IMG/VR virus record: IMGVR_UViG_2698536392_000015
Span: 1 to 53,751 of that record
DNA: 53,751 nt
Direction: 5' to 3' (one strand)
Origin: a virus
Taxonomy: Duplodnaviria > Heunggongvirae > Uroviricota > Caudoviricetes
Shown: positions 1-9,711 of the stretch, piece by piece
How positions within the stretch are numbered: the stretch's first letter is position 1
How the letters are laid out: every line of letters begins with the position of its first letter
Position numbers and translations under genes: made by a program
Notes under the pieces: generated by a model
Seen by the model: the letters and a program-made list of their open reading frames with translations, nothing else
Told to the model about the DNA's origin: nothing
Database searches by the model: none

Positions 1-1976
1 GGATCGAAAAATATTGCACCTATTGAGATAATCGGGGCATCAGGATTTTTTCCCATGGTTTCAAGGTCGATCATTAGATGGTCACACGTCCTGCTGGTGG
101 ATGTGATAATGCGATGACCGTTCACCGTAATTGAGGGATCTGCCGTCTCGCCAGTTTCACTATAGCTGGCGTGGTCCTGAGCGCTGCCAGCATTCTCCTT
201 GTGTGGATGTTCAGCGCCTTCCATTTTCTCCGAATCGTCTTCCTGAACTTCAACCAGGTTCTTGTCATCGAATGTTTCCTGGTATGTTGCGTCGCCCATC
301 ACCGCGCCACAATCAGGGCAGTTGCCGCCACTCCTCTGACCGCAGGCGGTGCAGATCTTTTCCGGTTCCTGTTGCACTACTGGTTCAGGTTGTTTCGTTT
401 CTGGCTCGTTTTGTTGCGTATTTGGGCTGTTCTGTTCCGCTTTCTGGTCGTTCTGTTCCGTTTCTGGCTGATTCTGGTACACAGAATCGCGGGTCTGGAT
501 CCCCTTAATCCATTTCGGATCATTCGGGTCGCTAATCCCTTCAACAAATTCTCCGCGAGAGGCAGCCAGTAATTTGTCTGCATCGACAGGATTTTGGGGC
601 GGAATGTTTTTCCGGGCTTCATGGAGTTCTGCCCGCAGTTTCTGATATTTCGCATCAACAGAATTTATCTGTGGCTGAGCATCCATCGACTGCGTGTCCT
701 GATTATGTTCAGTTGTATCCGGTTCCACTGCTTCAGTCGTTGCCTGTTCATCTGCCATTGCGCCAGATGGCTGCGGTTTTTCTTCATCATCCTGTTTTCC
801 TTCTTTTGTTACACGCTGCGGCATTGGAGCAGAGGAGCGACCGCAGGCAATATCCACGATTTCTGGATCAGGGTTGGCATGGTCGGTTTCGGTCAGTACT
901 TTGTTCAGATATTCGGTAACACGGTGGGGAGTAGCCTCGATACCAATTGGTGCTTCTTTCACGGACGCAACCACTATCGCGCGGGAATAATCCAGGTGAC
1001 CAGGCATGGCGATGAATTTGTCACGAAAAACAGAAAAGGGCGGCTTATTCTCTGAAACGATTTCTTCAATGCGTTTGGCGTGTGCCGGATGTGGATTGTA
1101 AATATCGATGTCCATTGAACGGGCCAGAACGCCAGCGGCAACGTCACGTTCCACTGACGCATCATCGTGGACAAAACCTTCACCGCGATCGGTAAGAATT
1201 CCTCCGCCAGCATTAGCGCCGGATGGCGTGCGGCTGATGCGTAAAACACGATTTCCTTTCATCCACTCTTTTGTCAGCAGACCTCGATCGGTATAGTCAG
1301 CGTCCAGGTATGCTTCGAAAAAAGCAGTCATTAACCCCAGACTGGAATTAACGGGATTAGGGAAAACTTTGTCTGTGTCGCGTACCAGTTTGTGAAGGTC
1401 GCGAATCTCCAGCGGGTCGAGCAGCTTTGTGTTGTGGGAAATAGCCAGGGCAGTAACAGCAGGCAGTTCTTCAGCTCGTGCGATATGTAATGCCTGAAGT
1501 TCTTCCCGTGAAACGTGCGTTACCGGTTTTTCGCTGCCATGTTGCGCAAGCCAGCGAATGGGCAGTTCCTGACCGGAAATCGGCAGGAGCATATTATCCT
1601 CAATCTCAGCCATGTCTTCGCCATTGACGTTGGTATTGTCAGTGCTGGCTGGTTTGTCCTGAACTGAGGGGGAAGGCGCTATAAATATCATTGTGATGCC
1701 ATCTTCTCCGCCTTTTTCATAGCGGTTGCAGAATTCAGTATCGAACACACCTTCAGGCGGCAGGTCATTAACAATGGGCAAATTCACGCGAACAGGTTTT
1801 TTGAAATCCTCTTCGTCAAATCCAGCATCGTCCATTGCGACAACACCCCGTGATATTGCAACCGATAATTTTTTTGCTGTGCGCCAGTAAAAACCGCCTT
1901 TAATCCCAAGGCGTTTTCTGACTTTGTCATTTTTGGCTTCGTAATACAGTGCAATTTCTTCTTTATCAGTGCTCAT
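1..1976 (-). CDS. Large prophage exonuclease-like protein, 3' end outside window; possible RecE (exonuclease VIII) homologue
   Basis: Manual translation from ATG at 1976 (RBS GAGG 7 nt upstream) stays open to position 1, so it is absent from the ORF track. Contains a CxxC-x7-CxxC zinc ribbon, a Q/E/P-rich low-complexity linker and a terminal MIDLETMG...[11 protein letters not shown] stretch resembling a DEDD exonuclease Exo I motif. Sits where recE lies in Rac-like prophages. Confidence 0.55.
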
Positions 1977-2068
1977 TGATAAACCTCATAACTATTTTAA
2001 GGTTGTACGAATCCCTGCTATTGCTGGCATGCTTAATCAACGGGTATGGCGTTAATACGGCTGGCGGG

Positions 2069-2257
2069 TTATCCAGCCGGTATTTCGTTATTCAGGTACA
2101 GCGATACTTTGTTTAACGGGAGACATTCACCGGAAATTTTTTGCTCGTCTCTTGCCTGATGGCAGGATTCTTTACTGGCATAAATTCCGGTAATCACATT
2201 CTGTGGCTCACCTGTTATAAGAAAAACCGTCATCATCAGTGCAAACGCTGAACTCAC
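2069..2257 (-). CDS. Small hypothetical protein (62 aa), hydrophobic N-terminus
   Basis: Track ORF; overlaps upstream gene by 4 nt, directly upstream of the exonuclease gene in the same leftward operon. Confidence 0.35.
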   Translation of the reverse strand: MSSAFALMMTVFLITGEPQNVITGIYASKESCHQARDEQKISGECLPLNKVSLYLNNEIPAG

Positions 2258-2442
2258 TGCTGCCCTCCGAAAATGCCAAGTTCAAGAAGGGCAATTCTGG
2301 AGAGTATGGAATTATCATTGAGAAGATAAGGCTCATATTTTCTCATCCTGATGGCGTCTTCAGTAAACTCCCGGTTACTGAGCAGAATACCAATATTAAA
2401 ACACCCTTCAGACGTATTAACGTTTGGTAGTGACGTTTCCAT
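2254..2442 (-). CDS. Small hypothetical protein (62 aa)
   Basis: Internal ATG at 2442 preceded by GAGGA; the track ORF 2254..2547 starts further upstream. Confidence 0.35.
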   Translation of the reverse strand: METSLPNVNTSEGCFNIGILLSNREFTEDAIRMRKYEPYLLNDNSILSRIALLELGIFGGQQ

Positions 2443-3005
2443 TATCGCGTCCTCAACAATGAATTTTGTGATGCGGTGCCTGGTGCCTCCAGGTGACGTT
2501 AACCAGTTAACAATTAACGCCGGATACAGAGAATCCACCCATAACACTGTTTTTGGTTTTAACTGTTCCGCGTGCGCTGAGCCGCATTCACCGCATCACA
2601 AAATTCACTTTAAAAAGGGCGGCAGAGCAGCCACGGAGTAAAACTGATACCGCCAAACGTCACCAGAAAATTGATAACAGAGGGCGTTGCAGCGGGGTTG
2701 TCACTTAAGCGTATGGTCAGCCTGACAACCCGGTGTCCTCAAGGGGAAGGAATAACCCCGCCATACTTACCGCCGCGCCATTTCGCGGATTGCCACAACC
2801 AGAAGCGCACGGTCGAAGAAATTTAACGACAAGACTTATATGCAAAGGGATCTCGCCGTGCGCTTTCGTGTTATGCCCTGACTTTTCAGGGAAATATCCT
2901 TTCAGTAAACTGTCAGTACCGGATTCTTATCCGTGTCCGGCGCACGACCACACGTGACAGCGTGTTGGTCTCCATTTTTAACCCAGAACCTCAATGGAGG
3001 ATAAA

Positions 3006-3215
3006 ATGCCAAACAAAAAAAGAAATCCGCTTATTGAAAAACAGATTGAATGCCTGGTAAATCAACTCAGGCAATCAGGGTTATTAAAAACTCATTCAGA
3101 GTTGAGGCTCACAGAATCAGCATTCGACGATAAATTAAATAATGTCCTTTATAATGGCATTATTGATTTTAATCGTTCTGTTGGTCGCCGCGGCCCTGCT
3201 GGTGTTTCCTTATAA
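3006..3215 (+). CDS. Small hypothetical protein (69 aa)
   Basis: ATG at 3006 with GGAGG 5 nt upstream; AT-rich; convergent with 3216..3854. Confidence 0.35.
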   Translation: MPNKKRNPLIEKQIECLVNQLRQSGLLKTHSELRLTESAFDDKLNNVLYNGIIDFNRSVGRRGPAGVSL

Positions 3216-3854
3216 TTACCAGTCAATCCAGAGTGGACCGTGTTCAGCGTAAATATAACTGTACACATCCAGATTATATTTGTGGTCTGTTAAGAACAGG
3301 CCGCAAATACATGCCGAAGCTTCCAGTGCAGCGGCTCTGTTACTGAATAACCATGTAGCAACATTCCAGCGTTTTTCTGCATCCCAGTCTTTCTCAAGGC
3401 CTGATACCATGAAGAAACCGTTAGTGTTGCCATCAAATAATTCTGTTTCCAAATTTTTAAGCAATGCCTGATGGACTCTTGCCAGGTATTCCGCCGGAAT
3501 TTCGCCACGAATTCTGATGAGATTGTCATAAACAAACATGTTCCCCGCATATGGCGATTTTTCTTTCTTGTTTTTTAAACCAGCATCATGAGCAAACTGA
3601 TCAATTTCTTCTTCCGTTGGTTTCGTATTGATGTTTTGCGCTGTCGTTTCTGCAATTTTATTTGCCACACTCTCTGAGTCGTGTTTATTTATAGACGCAC
3701 AGAAATACAATCCGGTAAACGCATCGCGCACATTACGAGCCATATTATCAGTGTCTTTTTTCGTTACCGATTCCAATTCAAGTTCGTTCAGACGATGACG
3801 AAGTGTGTGTGCTGCAATCTCCTGGATTGAAGGAGGTAAATCTTTAAATTCCAT
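3216..3854 (-). CDS. Hypothetical prophage protein (212 aa)
   Basis: Track ORF 3216..3866; start MEFKDLPP at 3854 with GAGG RBS; stop abuts the upstream gene. Confidence 0.5.
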   Translation of the reverse strand: MEFKDLPPSIQEIAAHTLRHRLNELELESVTKKDTDNMARNVRDAFTGLYFCASINKHDSESVANKIAETTAQNINTKPTEEEIDQFAHDAGLKNKKEKSPYAGNMFVYDNLIRIRGEIPAEYLARVHQALLKNLETELFDGNTNGFFMVSGLEKDWDAEKRWNVATWLFSNRAAALEASACICGLFLTDHKYNLDVYSYIYAEHGPLWIDW

Positions 3855-3865
3855 CGTCAACCTCA

Positions 3866-4105
3866 TCAGTCAGTGTTTCTGGCTAACCAGCGACGCGCGC
3901 CAGCTTCAGTTTTAAACGTTTTGCTTTTGGTATACGTCATCGCGGTGAACGTACCGTCCTGGTTGGGGAACACGCCACATACCAGAGATTCGTTGTTGCC
4001 AAGATTGAGCGTATCCATGTTGACCTCATTTCCCCTTAACGCCGGGGTAGCGGAACAAAAACCTGCTGCATAGTTATTAAAGTTGAACCCTGCCGTCATG
4101 TTCAT
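3866..4105 (-). CDS. Hypothetical prophage protein (79 aa)
   Basis: Track ORF in the leftward operon downstream of the toxin gene. Confidence 0.4.
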   Translation of the reverse strand: MNMTAGFNFNNYAAGFCSATPALRGNEVNMDTLNLGNNESLVCGVFPNQDGTFTAMTYTKSKTFKTEAGARRWLARNTD

Positions 4106-4309
4106 ACGCCTCGGGCTGGCTACTTAACCCCTGACCACTGCCGGGTAACTCGAAGTATTTCCCTGCGTTCTGTGGGGCGGGGTGGGTTGGTATTTTTAGT
4201 TTAATAAACATTAAACTTAAGTCAAGTAAAAACCAAACCGCGGGACATAACAAACACAACGCTTTTGATAAAGTCGTTGCGGTTGTTATGTTTCTATTGG
4301 TAGTGAAAG

Positions 4310-4588
4310 TTAGGGAAACTGGCGTCTTGCGTGGATCACGTTTACTACTTCAACGCTTGATGTTGTTACGCGGTATAGAATTATATAGTTAGGGTGGGCT
4401 ACAATCTCACGCAAGCCAGGTACTCTGTCGCTTGGTGGGTATAAATACGGATGTTCGGATAACGGCAGCACACAACCCCTTAATCGCTGCCATAAGCGTT
4501 CAGCCGCATCTATGTCGAAACGAGCAATATAACTAGTTATATCATCTAGGTCGGTATCTGCGCTTTCAAGCCATAACACGGGTAACAT
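4310..4588 (-). CDS. ParE/RelE-family type II toxin
   Basis: C-terminal ...NYIILYRVTTSSVEVVNVIHARR pattern typical of ParE/RelE toxins; ATG at 4588 lies 1 nt after the antitoxin stop. Confidence 0.7.
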   Translation of the reverse strand: MLPVLWLESADTDLDDITSYIARFDIDAAERLWQRLRGCVLPLSEHPYLYPPSDRVPGLREIVAHPNYIILYRVTTSSVEVVNVIHARRQFP

Positions 4589-4589
4589 T

Positions 4590-4781
4590 TTACTGCTTGC
4601 TCCGTTCCTTGCGCATCTTAGCAAAGCGTTCTGCCATTCTGCGCTCAACTTCGTCATGGGGAATTGCTGGGCGCGGATCTGCAAGGCTCGTTGCTACTTT
4701 CGCACGCAGCCATTCGTTGTAACTGTTTTCTTGTTCAATGGTTTCAAATTCAGAAACCATTGGTGAAAGGGCTCTATTCAT
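4590..4781 (-). CDS. Cognate antitoxin (ParD-like), 63 aa
   Basis: Start MNRALSP at 4781 preceded by GGAGGA; small, directly upstream of and coupled to the toxin. Confidence 0.6.
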   Translation of the reverse strand: MNRALSPMVSEFETIEQENSYNEWLRAKVATSLADPRPAIPHDEVERRMAERFAKMRKERSKQ

Positions 4782-4801
4782 GTTTCCTCCGGTTTTATAA
4801 C

Positions 4802-5173
4802 TCAGGCGCGGCGGCATTTTTGCGCCGCAATCCATCTCGCTATGAGATCTTCCATTGATTCTTTTTTCTGCTTTAACTCGCTGATTATCTGGCGTTGCTC
4901 ATCCTCAGGGAAGGCTGAAAAAATCTGCAATAATTCCAGTTGATTAGACGTTAACCCTGCATGTGGTGGAGAACCCCCCGGTTGTTCTGCGTATTCCGCA
5001 TCCAGATACCCTTCCGGCATCCCGTATGTTTGCTCTATTCTTCTGGCAGCCTTTTCTCCAAACGAGGCTCTCCCACTCATTAGTTGAGATAGGTAGCTCT
5101 TCTCTTTGGGTGGCAGAGTTTTATCTTTAAACCACTCCTTGAGACGTAAACGGCGAATTTCTTTTTTTTGCAT
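4802..5173 (-). CDS. Prophage immunity repressor, DicA-like HTH protein
   Basis: HTH region (SYLSQLMSGRASFGEKAARRIE) and C-terminal LELLQIFSAFPEDEQ resembling DicA as recalled; divergent from a Cro-like gene. Confidence 0.65.
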   Translation of the reverse strand: MQKKEIRRLRLKEWFKDKTLPPKEKSYLSQLMSGRASFGEKAARRIEQTYGMPEGYLDAEYAEQPGGSPPHAGLTSNQLELLQIFSAFPEDEQRQIISELKQKKESMEDLIARWIAAQKCRRA

Positions 5174-5270
5174 GTGGTAATTATCTTTAGTAATCACTAA
5201 ACAAGCAAATACTTGACTTAATGGTTTATCAAACACTAAACTCGCAAAAAAACACTAAACCGAGGAAGGT
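5174..5270. promoter_or_regulatory. Divergent promoter/operator region of the immunity switch
   Basis: Three CACTAAAC repeats (5193, 5232, 5250) and an inverted repeat TTTAGT-N4-ACTAAA (5179-5194) between divergent repressor and Cro-like genes. Confidence 0.5.
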
Positions 5271-5573
5271 ATGACATTAAAAGAGTTTATTAAATCATTA
5301 AGGGTTGGTGATGCTAAGAAATTCGCGGCCAGACTTGGTGTATCGCCATCTTACTTATCGCAAATGGCGTCTGGACGAACAGCTATATCTCCAACCCGCG
5401 CCCTTATGATCGAATCTGCGACGGAAGGCCAAGTAAGTAGGGCGGAGCTACGACCCCATGATTGGGAGCTTATTTGGCCTGAGTATGCGAGCGGCATTCG
5501 TTTGGGGCAAACACATGTAGTTCATGCTGAAGGTGATTGTAGTGCATGCTTATCTGATGGAGTTGATTCATGA
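5271..5573 (+). CDS. Cro/YdaS-like HTH regulator
   Basis: HTH motif (AARLGVSPSYLSQMASGR); divergent from repressor; RBS GAGGAAGG. Confidence 0.6.
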   Translation: MTLKEFIKSLRVGDAKKFAARLGVSPSYLSQMASGRTAISPTRALMIESATEGQVSRAELRPHDWELIWPEYASGIRLGQTHVVHAEGDCSACLSDGVDS

Positions 5574-5995
5574 AAATCAAGCATGAACACATCCGCATGG
5601 CGATGAATGTCTGGGCGCATCCGGACGGCGAAAAAGTACCGGCTGCGAAAATTACCAAAGCGTATTTCGAGCTGGGAATGACGTTCCCGGAACTGTACGA
5701 CGACAGCCATCCGGAAGCCCTGGCCCGTAATACCCAGAAAATTTTCCGCTGGGTGGAGAAGGACACCCCTGATGCTGTTGAAAAAATTCAGGCTCTGTTA
5801 CCGGCGATCGAAAAGGCGATGCCGCCTTTGCTGGTGGCCCGTATGCGCAGCCACAGTTCTGAATATTACCGTGAGATCGTCGAACGGAGGGATCGGCTGG
5901 TGAAGGATGTCGATGATTTTGTTGCGTCAGCGGTTGTTTTGTATGACCAGATGAATCGCGGCGGCCCGGCAGGGAATGCTGTGGTGATGCACTAA
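5570..5995 (+). CDS. YdaT-like prophage protein (141 aa)
   Basis: N-terminal MKIKHEH and size match my recollection of Rac YdaT; position after the Cro-like gene. Confidence 0.45.
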   Translation: MKIKHEHIRMAMNVWAHPDGEKVPAAKITKAYFELGMTFPELYDDSHPEALARNTQKIFRWVEKDTPDAVEKIQALLPAIEKAMPPLLVARMRSHSSEYYREIVERRDRLVKDVDDFVASAVVLYDQMNRGGPAGNAVVMH

Positions 5996-6002
5996 AAGCA
6001 CG

Positions 6003-6980
6003 GTGTTCGGGGGTTTTATGAGCAGCAAGCTTCATGGTCTTGTCTGGGAAGGGTGCGCCTTCACCGGCATGATCTTATCCAGGGTGGCGGTTATGGCCCG
6101 TCTTGCAGACTACAGCAATGACGAGGGCGTGTCATGGCCTGCCATTGAAACTATCCGGCGTCAGATCGGTGCAAGAAGTGAATCCACAGTGAAATCGGCT
6201 ATTGCAGAACTGGCGAAAGAGGGCTGGCTGACGAAGGAAGAGCGTAAGGTCGGTGGGCGTAATGTAAGCAATATCTATCGGCTTAATGTGGAAAAACTCG
6301 AAGCAGCTGCGGCGGCGGCGCGTGAGTCATATAAACCAAAAAGAAAAATTAGCCCGGCAAAAAATGACCCGTTAACAGTTGACCCGTCAAATATTGACCC
6401 CTCAACGGTTGACCCGTCAAATTTTGATGGATCAACTGTTGATAAAAAACTGCCGATTAGGGGGGCGATGATTGACCCCGATCCGTCAGTATTAAAACCT
6501 GATCCGTCAGATAAAAGATCTTCTTGTCCGGACGCTTCGCAACCGGACCCGCAGACGGCTGAACAGGATTTTTTAACCCGACACCCTGACGCGGTTGTGT
6601 TCAGTGCGAAAAAACGCCAGTGGGGAAGTCAGGAAGATTTGGTGTGCGCACAGTGGATCTGGGGACGAATCGTGAGTCTTTACGAGCAGGCGGCCAGCTA
6701 TGATGGCGAGATCACTAGACCGAAAGAACCCAACTGGACAGCATGGGCCAATGACGTTCGCACAATGCGGATGCTGGATGGCAGAACTCACAGACAAATT
6801 TGTGAAATGTTTGGGCGTCTCCAGCGGGATTCGTTCTGGGTAAAAAACATCATGAGTCCGGCAAAACTCCGGGAAAAATGGGATGAACTGGTTATCCGCC
6901 TGGGGCGTTCGCCTGCGCAGCGTTGCGTGAATCACATTTCTGAACCGGACACTGAAATTCCGCCGGGCTTCAGGGGGTAA
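6003..6980 (+). CDS. Putative replication initiator / replisome organiser (O-like)
   Basis: N-terminal winged-helix-like region; coding sequence contains iteron-like direct DNA repeats; lies in the replication-gene position. Confidence 0.5.
   Translation: MFGGFMSSKLHGLVWEGCAFTGMILSRVAVMARLADYSNDEGVSWPAIETIRRQIGARSESTVKSAIAELAKEGWLTKEERKVGGRNVSNIYRLNVEKLEAAAAAARESYKPKRKISPAKNDPLTVDPSNIDPSTVDPSNFDGSTVDKKLPIRGAMIDPDPSVLKPDPSDKRSSCPDASQPDPQTAEQDFLTRHPDAVVFSAKKRQWGSQEDLVCAQWIWGRIVSLYEQAASYDGEITRPKEPNWTAWANDVRTMRMLDGRTHRQICEMFGRLQRDSFWVKNIMSPAKLREKWDELVIRLGRSPAQRCVNHISEPDTEIPPGFRG
6362..6515. repeat. Iteron-like direct repeats (candidate replication origin) inside the replication gene
   Basis: TTGACCCGTCAA-like 12-13 bp units repeated at about 6378, 6393, 6408 and 6423, with degenerate copies to about 6510, followed by an A-rich stretch. 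Confidence 0.45.
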
Positions 6981-7020
6981 GTGTTAATTTCTGGTCATGA
7001 GGTAATTTTCAGGAGGGCTT

Positions 7021-7242
7021 GTGGCAAAAGTTTTTACACAAGAAGAGCGGGAAAAAATTAAAGGGCAGGTTGTTGAACTCGTACGCCAGAGTGGGCGCGA
7101 GACGTTACGACAACTGGAAACTAAAACTGGGGCAACAAGATATCTGATAAGCGTTCTGGCCAGAGAGCTGGTTGCCAGTGGCGATGTATACAACTCTGGT
7201 TACGGGTTATTCCCGTCTGAACAGGCGCGTAAGGACTGGTAA
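7021..7242 (+). CDS. Hypothetical small protein (73 aa)
   Basis: Track ORF; coding-like sequence continues in frame after the TAA stop. Confidence 0.3.
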   Translation: MAKVFTQEEREKIKGQVVELVRQSGRETLRQLETKTGATRYLISVLARELVASGDVYNSGYGLFPSEQARKDW

Positions 7243-7439
7243 AATGCCCGTAAAAAGCTCTCAAGGGCAAAGCCGAAGAAACCATCTGCGGTTGATCCGG
7301 ACCTTATCTGGTCATTACCAGATGGCGAAATACGCCGCTACGACAGGCGTCTGAACATAATCTGTCTCGAGTGCCGGAAGGGCGAAGTTATGCAGCGCGT
7401 ACTGGCGTTTTATCAGGGGAATTTTGAGGAGGTGGTGCG

Positions 7440-7694
7440 GTGAGTGAATCAAAATGCCAGGTTAATGGCAACAAGATAGAACCATGTGCAGCACTGGCAA
7501 AGTCCCTTGAGCATGATGCTGAATACACGATGCGAAAAGGTCTGTTGATATACAAAATCTGGAATGAGAGTTTAACTCGCGGTCCTGATTTTGTGATGTT
7601 GCGTTCCGGTGAATTTTCTAAATTACCAGTTCGGGTTTCATTTTGTCCGTTCTGTGGTGAAAGTCTGAAAACGTGGGAGAACAGAAATGAATGA
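7440..7694 (+). CDS. Hypothetical small Cys-containing protein (84 aa)
   Basis: Track ORF; C-terminal CPFCGE motif. Confidence 0.4.
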   Translation: MSESKCQVNGNKIEPCAALAKSLEHDAEYTMRKGLLIYKIWNESLTRGPDFVMLRSGEFSKLPVRVSFCPFCGESLKTWENRNE

Positions 7695-7998
7695 AATCAA
7701 AGAAATACCAGTAGTACGTGATGAATATGGCTGCTGGACGCATCCTGAATATGAAAAATTCTGTGACGGTCGGGAATATATTTCAACGGAAGAGTTTAAC
7801 GCCTGGATGGAGGAAAATAATCTTCAATACGTCCTCTGCTTCAGAGATGAAGGATGTGCTGACCTTGATGCGTGTGATGCTGATATTTCTGCATGGGAAC
7901 CGGAACGACCAGAGGGCAATGGATGGTTTATTGGTTCAATACATGACACCGAAGATGGCCCGGTTTGTGTATGGCTGAGAAATAAGGCCGAAGCATAA
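7687..7998 (+). CDS. Hypothetical nin-region protein (103 aa)
   Basis: Track ORF overlapping the previous stop. Confidence 0.4.
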   Translation: MNEIKEIPVVRDEYGCWTHPEYEKFCDGREYISTEEFNAWMEENNLQYVLCFRDEGCADLDACDADISAWEPERPEGNGWFIGSIHDTEDGPVCVWLRNKAEA

Positions 7999-8130
7999 AG
8001 GCTATAAACCGACTAACAACTAAATACTGAAGATTTAAATCAGAAACGATTTTTATTAAATCCTTAACCGGAGGGATTCCTGCACCCTCAAATCATCAGG
8101 AGGCCGCCCGAAAGGGCGGTGGAGATAATA

Positions 8131-8652
8131 ATGGGAATAACTAAAGAACGATTGTTGGAAATAGCAAACCTTAGTGATTGGGCATTAAGTGATGAGAGAA
8201 TTGTTTCTCCTCATGCTTATGAGTCAGTTACAAGTATAGAAATAACAACAATGGCTAGAATGCTGCTTGGTTATTTCAAAATAGAAAATAAAAAACAGAT
8301 GGATAGTAATGTTGATATATGTGAGATTTTAGACGATTGGGGGGCTTGGGTTGTGGCTGGTAATAGTTCTATTGATTGGCAGGAAATAGCTGATAAATAT
8401 AAAAATGTTGTTCCTCATGGTAAAAAATCACGTCGTCAGTGCAGCAATGATGAAGGGCGAATTATTGACATTAGTATCCTTAGGTTAGAAAGATATAAGC
8501 AACAAGAATATGAGTTAATTGTTGCTCATTTCGTGATTGGTTTATCTCTTCGTGCTATTGCAAAGCAACAAGGATGTTCAGATGGAACAATTCGTAAAAG
8601 ATTGCAAAAAGCCTTAGGTTTTTTGACTGGATATATAGCAATTACCAGTTAA
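8131..8652 (+). CDS. Late antiterminator Q-like protein
   Basis: WGAW motif, conserved RRQC stretch and C-terminal HTH-like ...SDGTIRKRLQKALG pattern resembling phage-82-type Q as recalled; ATG 8131 with GGTGGAG RBS. Confidence 0.6.
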   Translation: MGITKERLLEIANLSDWALSDERIVSPHAYESVTSIEITTMARMLLGYFKIENKKQMDSNVDICEILDDWGAWVVAGNSSIDWQEIADKYKNVVPHGKKSRRQCSNDEGRIIDISILRLERYKQQEYELIVAHFVIGLSLRAIAKQQGCSDGTIRKRLQKALGFLTGYIAITS

Positions 8653-9290
8653 GAGTCAGCGGTTTTTTTACCAGTGTAATGGTATAAGGATACTCCCATG
8701 TGTCTTACATGATATGGAAGCGCTGTTGCTGGATGCTTTGTGATACTCTTAAAGCGGAGGGGAGAGCCTTCCGCTTCAATTTCTGCGTCCGAAACGGTCG
8801 TAGAGAAAAATTCTTTCCATTCATTGAATTTTACTGCTGATTTGTCAGACTTTATATAAATTAGAATTCCTCCATGATCGTCACGTGACGTACCCGTGCC
8901 GTAACGTTCGGTTAGCTGAATCCAGCCATTATGAATAGATTTGGGGCCTCTCCATAATTTTGCTTCACCGATCCATTCGAATTTTCCGAATTGATGTTTA
9001 ACTAATAAATCAACGTGACCGCCATGTTGAGTATCATGTTCAACATCATAAAACCTACCTTTCAGGAAATTTTTGATCGACGCTGTTAGCTCGTCCTCTC
9101 CCCACTTAGCATCTTGATAGAAGTGTTTGTCATTTTCTAAATTCTGAATAGCGTCGTCTAAATCTTCATAGAGTTGCTTTACAAAAATATTTTTGTCTGC
9201 AGCTAATTTTCTTTGAACCATTCCCCTAAATTCAGGATCCATTCTAATTAATGATTGAAGGTCTGCAGTACAGATGTTTACATCACTCAT
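8649..9290 (-). CDS. Hypothetical protein with PD-(D/E)xK nuclease-like motif, gene 3 of a three-gene operon
   Basis: GHVDLL...GEAK spacing compatible with a PD-(D/E)xK core; start MSDVNIC at 9290 with GGAGAG RBS; overlaps the upstream gene stop. Confidence 0.5.
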   Translation of the reverse strand: MSDVNICTADLQSLIRMDPEFRGMVQRKLAADKNIFVKQLYEDLDDAIQNLENDKHFYQDAKWGEDELTASIKNFLKGRFYDVEHDTQHGGHVDLLVKHQFGKFEWIGEAKLWRGPKSIHNGWIQLTERYGTGTSRDDHGGILIYIKSDKSAVKFNEWKEFFSTTVSDAEIEAEGSPLRFKSITKHPATALPYHVRHMGVSLYHYTGKKTADS

Positions 9291-9711
9291 GCAGACTCTC
9301 CAAAAGACTCGAAGGAGTAAAGTATGGATAAAGATACTGGCTAAAATTATCAACCAATTCGCCAGTTTCTGGATGGTAAAAACTTCCTGTGTCTAAAGCA
9401 TAGGAAATAAGATCATCTTCAACTGGTATTGGTTCTTCCGTTAAATTATCAATGTATTGAAAATGCATATCCAATAGATGTGCTTTATAGCTAGATAAAT
9501 AATCAGTTGCTTTTATTAGCAGGATATAGTCATCTTTCGTATCAGTTAGATAGGTTAAACCATTGATAAGGGTTTTGTATGTAAAGTGATTGATATTTTT
9601 AGCATCTTTACTAACCAGAAAAAGAAAAAGATCACGACACACACTGCGAACAGGATCATTAAAATCCTGCTCTATTTGCGTGATAATGTCGTGATATATA
9701 CTCTTTTTCAT
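9283..9711 (-). CDS. Hypothetical protein (142 aa), gene 2 of the operon
   Basis: ATGA start/stop overlap with gene 1; AT-rich; no recognisable motif. Confidence 0.5.
   Translation of the reverse strand: MKKSIYHDIITQIEQDFNDPVRSVCRDLFLFLVSKDAKNINHFTYKTLINGLTYLTDTKDDYILLIKATDYLSSYKAHLLDMHFQYIDNLTEEPIPVEDDLISYALDTGSFYHPETGELVDNFSQYLYPYFTPSSLLESLHE

Follow-up and report, generated by a model that had tools for sequence, protein, structure and literature searches.

The window, by which we mean the whole 53,751-nucleotide (53.7-kb) stretch of phage DNA analysed here, begins inside a leftward gene (Table 1). Re-translation of the minus strand from ATG 1976 to position 1 yields 658 codons without a stop, as the original prediction had it. 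The left edge cuts the gene, leaving its 5' 81% inside the window. As was also predicted, the gene was missed by the ORF list because the tool used leaves out any ORF that extends beyond the source. The antisense ORFs within the gene (such as 594-1055 and 171-572, both on the plus strand) lie opposite this strongly supported coding frame.

The 658 residues encoded in the window match the start of an 814-aa database protein (P0008) with 100% identity; P0008 carries the names "exonuclease" or "3'-5' exoribonuclease". Judged at the level of sequence, an exact match between a 658-codon frame and a known 814-aa protein is far beyond chance. The RefSeq CDS WP_000102181.1, annotated as 'exonuclease', has 99.9% DNA identity to the window gene, differs from the window part by two substitutions, and also has ATG 1976 as its annotated start. 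The proposed extension past the window edge succeeded: contigs L011-L013, which are 99.98% identical to window positions 1-7976, provide the remaining 469 nt and complete the gene, in agreement with the database protein that starts with the window protein. It is from these contigs (7,976 nt of 99.98% identical sequence), and not from the contig of the window, that the nuclease domain was read beyond its first 26 residues. Within the collection of complete E. coli genomes, none was collinear with the first 14 kb of the window at a coverage of at least 80%.

Table 1. Features of the exonuclease gene and its upstream neighbours (window coordinates; residues are those of the exonuclease unless stated)
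Feature	Position	Strand	Details
Exonuclease gene, 5' part	1..1976	-	codons 1-658 and 2 nt of codon 659; 814 codons in all
Start of DEDDh domain, residues 633-658 (full domain 633-804)	3..80	-	PF16473; Exo I
Acidic linker, residues 561-632	81..296	-	predicted disordered; D 12%, E 12%, T 11%
RecE-homologous segment, residues 58-617 (K-12 RecE 50-592)	126..1805	-	BLASTP, 75% identical
Cys4 putative zinc ribbon, C542, C545, C553, C556	309..356	-	CTAC...CPDC; pLDDT ~68
Q/E/P/N-rich linker, residues 498-538	363..485	-	predicted disordered; 7-residue (21-nt) tandem units
Folded N-terminal region, residues 1-390	807..1976	-	alpha/beta lobe 1-100 and helical lobe 120-390
PF06630, 'Enterobacterial exodeoxyribonuclease VIII' N-terminal domain, residues 56-189	1410..1811	-	E 4.7e-34, 118.5 bits, cut-off 25
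Shine-Dalgarno-like GAGG	1984..1987	-	8-11 nt 5' of ATG 1976; read from sequence, consensus only
DUF1482 (YdfD-like) gene, same leftward operon	2069..2257	-	PF07358, E 1.8e-14
DicB cell-division inhibitor homologue, same operon	2254..2442	-	PF05358, E 3e-33, residues 36-97 of ORF 2254-2547

The genes of the operon are ordered YdaS/YdaT, DUF1391, DicB, DUF1482, exonuclease, xis and int. The order of the DUF1482 gene and the exonuclease gene is the same in all reference loci, and the window-identical contigs continue beyond the exonuclease gene with a DUF1233 excisionase and then an integrase. This Rac/Qin-like early-left gene order bears out the original placement of the gene in the recE position of Rac-like prophages. 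DnaQ-type nucleases located near int in lambdoid early-left operons have been reported (PMC12315714).

No recombinase partner accompanies the gene. Neither RecT nor RecE residues 593-866 had a tblastn match in the window, in L001, in L011 or in the complete phage HannyBb, and a scan of all early-left ORFs found no SSAP, SSB or Gam. Where RecE nuclease-domain DNA occurs in E. coli genomes, 11 of the 12 matches listed overlap a CDS for a recE-type nuclease together with recT; the twelfth is a partial (16%) match over a hypothetical protein and recT.

The RecE-type front end and its linkers

AlphaFold2 modelled the folded region, residues 1-390, with a mean pLDDT of 88.9. Comparison of this fold with solved and predicted structures gave no significant match (best E 0.87 in the PDB and 0.54 in BFVD), and a search of PDB sequences with the window protein matched nothing meaningful. 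The Pfam match in this region, PF06630, represents an N-terminal domain that is distinct from the nuclease domain. In RecE itself, the nuclease domain comprises residues 564-866 and the function of the N-terminal domain is unknown (PMC11611040).

The similarity to K-12 RecE is extensive and stops abruptly. BLASTP gave no alignment past RecE residue 592, and at the DNA level recE homology extends over window positions 135-1638 (83.5% by blastn) and ends at ~135. Consistent with this, both the window fragment (1093 bits) and P0008 (1092 bits) fall below the cut-off of 1269 bits for the RecE equivalog model NF007259 (NCBIfam) and match only model positions 1-603 of 877; the control, K-12 RecE, reaches 1830 bits over positions 1-877. 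PHROG 607 (RecE) is matched by residues 1-598. Thus, of the homology to RecE/exonuclease VIII that was to be checked, the part covering the ~590 non-catalytic N-terminal residues of RecE stands (75%, BLASTP) and the part covering its nuclease domain does not. Similarity to exonucleases as such is present.

A central stretch (residues 391-632) connects the front end to the C-terminus and consists of disordered acidic and Q/E/P-repeat linkers, a conserved helix and the Cys4 ribbon. Tandem Repeats Finder reports a repeat at 391-476 (period 21, 4.1 copies, 75% matches) made of in-frame 7-residue units, confirming the repeat-encoded Q/E/P-rich linker that had been proposed at ~378-480. Residues 498-538 are composed of 24% Q, 17% E, 15% P and 12% N, and have a pLDDT of ~30. 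The four cysteines that follow are kept in 6/6 homologues inspected; RecE and the two DEDD-type variants all conserve them. Because the Pfam zinc-ribbon (DZR) score is below threshold (E 0.05), the ribbon is plausible only; of the predicted zinc ribbon, it is the Cys4 motif that is clearly present. In the acidic linker pLDDT is <50 over residues 562-627, and it is inside this linker that RecE-type sequence gives way to DEDD-type sequence (at ~residue 617, nt 126-135).

The C-terminal DEDDh domain and its likely substrate

The last residues encoded in the window enter a nuclease domain of a different kind. The window fragment matches PF16473 over profile positions 2-27 (E 7e-8, 32.8 bits, cut-off 27), and WP_000102181.1 matches profile positions 2-177 of 177 (E 2e-67, 226.7 bits); the precomputed Pfam annotation of P0008 gives PF16473 as well. 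The DEDD-like motif at which the protein was said to end in the window is a genuine Exo I motif (D637-x-E639, nt 60-68). D737 (Exo II) and H787 and D792 (Exo III, H-x4-D) are found in P0008, past the window edge. The catalytic pentad is conserved in 11 of 12 full-length C-terminal domains of fusion representatives that share <50% identity; one fusion representative has a dead active site (DLKT/SFAN).

The best PDB sequence match to this domain is T4 DexA (8KEL; E 9e-8, phmmer alignment). DexA is also the top Foldseek match (E 1.3e-7, TM 0.63-0.68) to the AlphaFold2 model of residues 633-810, a moderately confident model with pLDDT ~70-90. All of the top 50 Foldseek matches are DEDD enzymes (DexA, RNase T, Cas2-DnaQ, Orn and REXO2), each with a probability of 1.00. 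By sequence and predicted structure, the complete domain is a DEDDh domain of the DnaQ fold that is Rv2179c/DexA-like, and 3'-5' polarity is expected.

In the alignments, the DEDDh domain sits exactly at the position of the PD-(D/E)XK domain of RecE. Because RecE homology stops before the nuclease, the C-terminus belongs to the DEDDh superfamily and there is no RecT, the protein is assigned as something other than exonuclease VIII. A canonical RecE, which would degrade dsDNA 5'-3' in partnership with RecT for single-strand-annealing recombination as in Rac, would account for the operon position of recE, the 75% identity over ~560 residues, the PF06630 match and the PHROG 607 match. It would also agree with the NCBI name 'RecE family exodeoxyribonuclease, partial', given to many truncated copies at contig edges. 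However, the homology ends at RecE 592, before the structured nuclease domain, and neither a PD-(D/E)XK domain nor RecT is present in the window or in identical contigs. The sub-threshold equivalog score of P0008 and the full DEDDh domain at its C-terminus point the same way. This reading is refuted at the sequence level and we regard it as extremely improbable. The gene is already known and annotated; it is a very common E. coli prophage gene, ordinary and easily mislabelled as RecE.

Very probably, this gene is the last one in the early leftward operon of a lambdoid E. coli prophage of the Rac/Qin type, and encodes a modular DEDDh exonuclease and not a RecET-type recombinase. We anticipate that the protein is made upon prophage derepression or infection. 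It would then trim 3'-OH ends nucleotide by nucleotide through two-metal DEDDh catalysis, with DNA as the most probable substrate, as for DexA. By way of the long flexible linkers, the RecE-type part may tether or target the nuclease either to a DNA end or to a partner from the host. Removal in the 3'-5' direction would leave no RecE-like 3' single-stranded tails for RecT, and the enzyme would therefore not act as a RecET-type recombinase. Candidate roles include the trimming of 3' tails in recombination-dependent replication that relies on host RecBCD/RecA, DNA scavenging, and attack on incoming foreign DNA. The window has five Chi sites on the plus strand and two on the minus strand, a count that seems not to be enriched relative to the E. 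coli average and that says little, as the window may include non-phage DNA. Chi enrichment is expected for lambdoids with 'no Rec module' (PMC12315714).

Alternatively, the enzyme could act on RNA as the phage develops, for example on small RNAs, RNA primers or oligoribonucleotides. The best Pfam family, PF16473, is named '3'-5' exoribonuclease Rv2179c-like', and some NCBI names agree with it. Furthermore, the strong structural matches include RNase T, oligoribonuclease and REXO2, the first two nearly as good as DexA, and the operons of relatives use RNA-based regulation (in Qin, the DicF sRNA is located upstream of dicB). Yet DexA, which of the characterised relatives is nearest in sequence as well as in structure, is a DNA exonuclease, the domain stands in for a DNA exonuclease on a DNA-recombination scaffold, and RNase T also trims DNA (PDB complexes with DNA). 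We consider an exoribonuclease unlikely.

Distribution, selection and possible roles

DNA of the DEDD module is present in 4,089 of 5,426 complete E. coli genomes (~75%), often in several copies, and DNA of the RecE nuclease domain in 1,736 of the same genomes. The DEDDh form is the commonest version in E. coli. Intact genes of 813-823 aa in the layout dicB-ydfD-exonuclease-xis-int were found at three different att sites. The RecE-N::DEDD fusion also occurs in isolated phages, and lytically viable phages have retained the gene. Among 80 long representatives of the RecE-type front end, 19 have a PD-(D/E)XK domain, 13 have a DEDDh domain, many have nothing recognisable and one has RecT; the last, a RecE-N::RecT fusion, looks like a deletion product. 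The fusion architecture is common to 13 clusters with <50% identity. Standalone homologues of PF16473 (30-56% identity) are encoded by hundreds of phages, including those of Klebsiella, Vibrio, Pseudomonas and Rhodobacter.

Sequence comparison indicates that the gene is a mosaic that is mostly under purifying selection. Values of dN/dS are 0.05-0.5 in most comparisons of alignable segments (range 0.00-0.76), and the DEDD module has been swapped almost unchanged among otherwise divergent genes. Two K-12 genes were considered as relics of this gene and rejected. DLP12 exoD has no blastn or tblastn similarity to the DEDD module. Qin ydfE has no similarity to P0008; it corresponds to the first 256 residues of the Qin-type N-terminal variant, and K-12 ydfE (b1577) is a remnant of that variant cut by IS2.

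Such truncated relatives, along with the representative that has a dead active site and the RecE-N::RecT fusion, might suggest that the window gene is itself a decaying remnant, a functionless chimeric pseudogene that arose within a defective prophage through a deletion or an illegitimate fusion. Defects are frequent among O157 prophages, which is in line with this view. On the other hand, many loci, and isolated phages too, carry intact full-length genes, and the same architecture recurs across 13 divergent clusters with conserved catalytic residues. In addition, most alignable comparisons give a dN/dS well under 1 and the 658 codons in the window have no stop. Decay is a very improbable explanation.

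Another reading gives the gene a main role in prophage defence, in which the DEDDh domain, like the E. coli DexA homologue EcD ('HREX'), would degrade incoming phage DNA with modified cytosines and thereby protect the lysogen. Its closest solved relative is T4 DexA, and the gene is prophage-borne, present in ~75% of E. coli genomes and often multicopy. The exchange of an almost unchanged DEDD module among divergent genes is as expected of selected cargo, and for an E. coli DexA homologue that stands alone, leaky expression is reported to suffice for protection against T4 (PMC12153337). Nevertheless, the gene lies at the far end of a repressor-controlled early-left operon and is retained in lytically viable phages, and PADLOC returned no defined defence system, only a generic DEDDh model (E 1.7e-5). 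The early-left operon of Rac is silent in lysogens (recET, sbcA), which likewise counts against defence. EcD also appears, judged solely by residue numbering (A78 aligned with DexA D90), to be a standalone protein. EcD has Ala at the position of DexA D90, a tetramer-forming Asp, and DexA W152 is the Trp that recognises 5hmC (PMC12153337). In our alignment with T4 DexA, which at ~20% identity is unreliable per residue, D90 pairs with Asp, unlike in EcD, and W152 pairs with Tyr in a column that varies among Y, C, V and W across the family. We consider defence to be a doubtful primary function, about as improbable as an RNA substrate.

Returning to the modular DEDDh exonuclease, a broader and tentative possibility, which we rate below even odds though above the alternatives just discussed, is that the RecE-type front end serves lambdoid phages generally as a scaffold for delivering interchangeable C-terminal 'warheads', and that the DEDDh form has an annealase-independent job distinct from that of RecET. 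If so, the DEDDh form could destroy incoming or competitor DNA, or could act as a 3'-end-trimming cofactor for phages that use host RecBCD/Chi without a recombinase of their own.

There is also a lesson for annotation. On truncated copies the name "RecE family exodeoxyribonuclease" implies a 5'-3' recombination nuclease that is paired with RecT; the complete protein behind these truncated 'RecE' copies has a 3'-5' DEDDh domain and no partner. Roughly 75% of the complete E. coli genomes carry the gene, which is more widespread than recE. We found no biochemical or genetic data in the literature for P0008 or close relatives, and literature on ydfE/Qin and on Rv2179c with phage contained nothing on function. 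RecE is used in direct-cloning technology, and its N-terminal two thirds have long been unexplained. A role for the DEDDh form, if worked out, be it in conflict between phages or in recombination-dependent replication that lacks a phage recombinase, would bear on this region of RecE.

Comparison with known systems

Like K-12 Rac RecE, the window protein is encoded in the early-left operon slot of a Rac-like prophage, and the two share the PF06630 domain, the helical lobe, a 'DPNDPKW' segment, the repeat linker, the Cys4 ribbon and the acidic linker. They differ in the first ~57 residues and in the repeat linker, which is two 7-residue units longer in the window protein (14 residues shorter in K-12 RecE). 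The 5'-3' PD-(D/E)XK nuclease of RecE (~593-866) is missing in the window-type protein, which has the DEDDh domain in its place. Rac recT, ralR and rcbA are absent here, and the exonuclease gene is followed directly by xis and int.

For the C-terminal domain, the nearest solved relative is T4 DexA (8KEL/8KEN), with which it has the Exo I, II and III motifs in common. Identity is ~20-23%, and DexA is a standalone protein of 227 aa with extra loops, in contrast to the C-terminal fifth of an 814-aa protein here. The residue that aligns with the 5hmC-recognition Trp of DexA (W152) is a Tyr here, at a position that is not conserved in the family of the window protein. Within PF16473, whose namesake is Mycobacterium tuberculosis Rv2179c, the window protein is a full-length, high-scoring member, but is fused to a RecE-type scaffold; the RNase activity of Rv2179c is one that we take from the family description.

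The DnaQ-type nucleases and 'RecE-2' proteins of lambdoid phages match the window protein in position and in modular family, and a RecE-N::DnaQ fusion is not described as such in the available part of the main text of that study (PMC12315714). The Qin-type exonuclease (823 aa) occupies the same dicB-ydfD-exonuclease-xis-int slot and shares the central region from ~residue 299. Its N-terminal ~270 residues are wholly unlike those of the window-type protein and lack PF06630, whereas its DEDD domain is 100% identical to the window-type domain at the amino-acid level (dS 0.034).

Gene identity, contig break and operon

Minus-strand translation from ATG 1976 to the window edge gave 658 sense codons with no stop, in keeping with the original prediction of a long, open exonuclease-like frame, and the ORF track had indeed missed the gene, since its ORF lister leaves out ORFs that run off the source. 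This start codon, with GAGG 8-11 nt upstream, was also chosen by RefSeq annotators for a 99.9% identical copy. The 658 residues are the exact prefix of an 814-aa database protein (P0008) that is present on 46 contigs under the names 'exonuclease', '3'-5' exoribonuclease' and, rarely, 'exodeoxyribonuclease VIII'. Window positions 1-7976 are 99.98% identical to three P0008-carrying contigs (L011-L013), which supply 469 more nt of the gene, followed by a DUF1233 excisionase and an integrase. In the window the exonuclease gene is the last of a leftward operon (Table), in the recE position of the original prediction. Directly after the integrase, L011 (10257-12257) encodes three tandem NleG-family T3SS effectors and the tail fibre of a neighbouring prophage; as these genes occupy this place in L011-L013, the window's prophage adjoins an effector-carrying element.

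Cut short by the contig end, this prophage exonuclease gene is ordinary and very common. Public resources already contain the identical protein, its Pfam domain layout and a PHROG of matching length (phrog_2082, profile length 823), so that it is known both as a sequence and as an annotated gene; a literature search found no experimental work on P0008-type exonucleases. The contig ends within the DEDD module, which is 95-100% identical among up to seven prophages per genome. Since O157:H7 genomes carry 5-7 copies of the exonuclease region and dozens of database entries are 'partial' proteins of varied lengths at contig ends, the window is most likely a draft contig broken within a repeated prophage module. 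Short-read E. coli assemblies seem to break repeatedly within this gene, and its fragments bear the misleading name 'RecE family exodeoxyribonuclease'.

Features of the window around the exonuclease gene
Feature	Position	Strand	Remarks
Exonuclease gene	1-1976	-	first 658 of 814 codons
DEDD module at contig end	1-135
Chi octamer GCTGGTGG	93-100	+	within exonuclease gene, about 30 nt from RecE/DEDD junction
recE DNA homology	135-1638		no further
21-nt tandem repeat	391-476		4.1 copies (Tandem Repeats Finder)
DUF1482 gene			leftward operon, between DicB gene and exonuclease
DicB gene			leftward operon, after 216-aa ORF
216-aa ORF	3216-3866	-	no Pfam match; only PHROG 2151 (function unknown), E 1.9e-147
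DUF1391 gene			leftward operon, after PaaA2-ParE
PaaA2-ParE type II toxin-antitoxin pair	4310-4835	-	PF21217 E 1.7e-19, PF05016 E 4.8e-16
Repressor-like gene	4802-5236		leftward operon
Antiterminator-Q gene	8119-8652	+
234-aa ORF	8649-9353	-	no Pfam match; PHROG 9664 (unknown)

The PaaA2-ParE pair is inserted between the repressor-like and DUF1391 genes of this early-left operon and is present too in L011-L013; in other copies of the same prophage the 216-aa ORF is conserved as a 212-aa gene call. Opposite the operon lie YdaS/Cro-like, YdaT and replication genes. No annealase, SSB or Gam was found among the operon's ORFs, and tblastn with RecT and the RecE nuclease domain gave no match in the whole window, the reference loci or the complete phage HannyBb. 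Just after the antiterminator-Q gene, a 234-aa ORF has a weak PADLOC match to candidate system PDC-S54 (E 0.002) and, by eye, a D...(D/E)xK-like motif (HVDLLV...GEAKLW), which suggests a nuclease-fold moron.

A RecE-type front end and a DEDDh nuclease

The proposed homology to RecE held for the front part and stopped there: BLASTP aligned residues 58-617 with residues 50-592 of K-12 RecE at 75% identity, with no alignment beyond. Pfam places 'Exonuc_VIII' (PF06630) at residues 56-189, and the NCBIfam RecE equivalog model matched only over positions 1-603 of 877, scoring 1092 bits against a cut-off of 1269 (1830 bits for the K-12 RecE control). Judged by sequence, the similarity is confined wholly to the non-nuclease part, and the swap point lies in an acidic, predicted disordered linker just ahead of RecE's structured nuclease domain. 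Residues 1-390 are predicted to fold confidently into an alpha/beta and a helical lobe (pLDDT 88.9); structure searches of PDB and BFVD gave no significant match.

The anticipated linker, zinc ribbon and terminal DEDD-like motif all have counterparts in the protein. The in-frame 21-nt repeat encodes 7-residue units (residues 498-538 are 24% Q, 17% E, 15% P and 12% N), a Cys4 motif (C542, C545, C553, C556) follows this segment, and the last 26 window residues match the start of the Rv2179c-like DEDD domain (PF16473) and contain Exo I D637-x-E639. PF16473, also the precomputed Pfam domain of P0008, is full-length in the near-identical RefSeq protein WP_000102181.1 (residues 633-804, E 2e-67), and P0008 has, besides the Exo I pair, D737 (Exo II), H787 and D792 (Exo III). 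In the AlphaFold2 model (mean pLDDT 73.6; about 70-90 in the DEDD domain), residues 393-437, 491-537 and 562-627 are predicted to be disordered and are separated by a helix (439-456) and by the small Cys4 element. Together these data show an intact DEDDh domain attached to a RecE-type scaffold by linkers that are long and flexible.

A sequence search for solved structures returned only 8KEL/8KEN (E 9e-8). The best Foldseek match of the model was T4 exonuclease A, DexA (E 1.3e-7, TM 0.63-0.68), followed by RNase T, a Cas2-fused DnaQ domain and oligoribonucleases. The substrate is probably DNA, by analogy with DexA; given RNase T and the oligoribonucleases among the matches, it may instead be RNA.

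Distribution and mosaic history

Megablast, whose genome counts are lower bounds, found DEDD module DNA in at least 4,089 of 5,426 complete E. coli genomes (at least 8,157 places) and RecE nuclease-domain DNA in at least 1,736; this nuclease-swapped relative thus occurs in more E. coli genomes than does recE. Among the RecE nuclease-domain matches listed, 11 of 12 cover a recE-type nuclease CDS and recT, and the twelfth is partial (16%), over a hypothetical protein and recT. In three randomly sampled single-copy genomes the order dicB-ydfD-exonuclease (813-823 aa)-xis-int occupies three different attachment sites; isolated phages vB_EcoS-689R5 and HannyBb share this layout.

The DEDD exonuclease has two N-terminal variants, the RecE-type of the window and a Qin-type, whose alignment with P0008 begins only at about residue 299. 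Other E. coli carry the gene for an intact 823-aa Qin-type protein at their rspB site (L008 2605-5076), and HannyBb has it too. The K-12 pseudogene ydfE (b1577; L010 3079-3999), which is cut by IS2, matches residues 1-256 of this 823-aa protein with 100% identity, so that it is a remnant of the second variant.

Exhaustive search with the non-DEDD part gave only 237 clusters at 50% identity. By C-terminus, 80 long representatives comprised 19 with a RecE-type nuclease, 13 with a DEDD domain and 48 with neither. None of ten Pfam-scanned members of the last group had a C-terminal nuclease domain; one, P0123 (703 aa, outside the window), is a RecE-N::RecT fusion (PF06630 and PF03837) that probably arose by a deletion joining recE to recT. 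One of the 13 fusion representatives is truncated; among the other 12, whose C-terminal domains are full-length, 11 keep the DEDDh residues. In P0169, a DEDD-type fusion outside the window, the active site is degenerate, with DLKT and SFAN for DLET and NFDN.

The DEDD segment is near-identical (dS 0.017-0.034) between genes with very divergent or unrelated front parts, and identity over residues 120-390 is 88% with K-12 RecE but only 62% with another DEDD-type gene; dN/dS was 0.05-0.5 in most alignable segment comparisons (range 0.00-0.76). At the level of sequence, these comparisons show the gene to be a mosaic. Seven Chi sites occur in the 53.7 kb (93, 5830, 12157, 12214 and 53724, plus strand; 52243 and 52295, minus strand), a number that we judge not enriched relative to the E. 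coli average, and the closeness of one to the mosaic boundary is probably chance.

Proposed action and relation to known systems

The exonuclease would be expressed on prophage derepression or on infection, its front end targeting or tethering the nuclease and its DEDDh domain hydrolysing from 3'-OH ends by two-metal catalysis. As the 3' tails that RecE makes are removed by 3'-5' exonucleases, it should not act as a RecET-type recombinase. A 2025 Genome Research paper (PMC12315714) describes DnaQ-like nucleases in lambdoid Rec modules and sporadic ones near int, remarks that 3'-5' nucleases of this kind usually inhibit recombination, and further describes RecE relatives without a nuclease domain and many lambdoids that, having no Rec module, rely on RecBCD/Chi. 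According to a 2025 NAR paper (PMC12153337), a DexA homologue that E. coli encodes as a standalone protein degrades 5hmC DNA and so gives protection against T4, and a similar defence role is conceivable here; as the position tentatively paired with DexA W152 carries a non-conserved Tyr and PADLOC found no defined defence system, it is a lead and not a finding.

The main value of the analysis is a correction: the protein is a nuclease-swapped, modular RecE relative and not exonuclease VIII. It has the RecE front end in common, but three defining features of RecE, a score above the model cut-off, the nuclease domain and a RecT partner, are absent. The K-12 Rac order is recE-recT-ralR-rcbA-xisR-intR, unlike this locus, where xis and int come next and RecT is missing. 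All testable features of the DexA/Rv2179c subfamily of DEDDh exonucleases are present, and the protein is predicted, from its motifs and model, to work like an enzyme of that subfamily.
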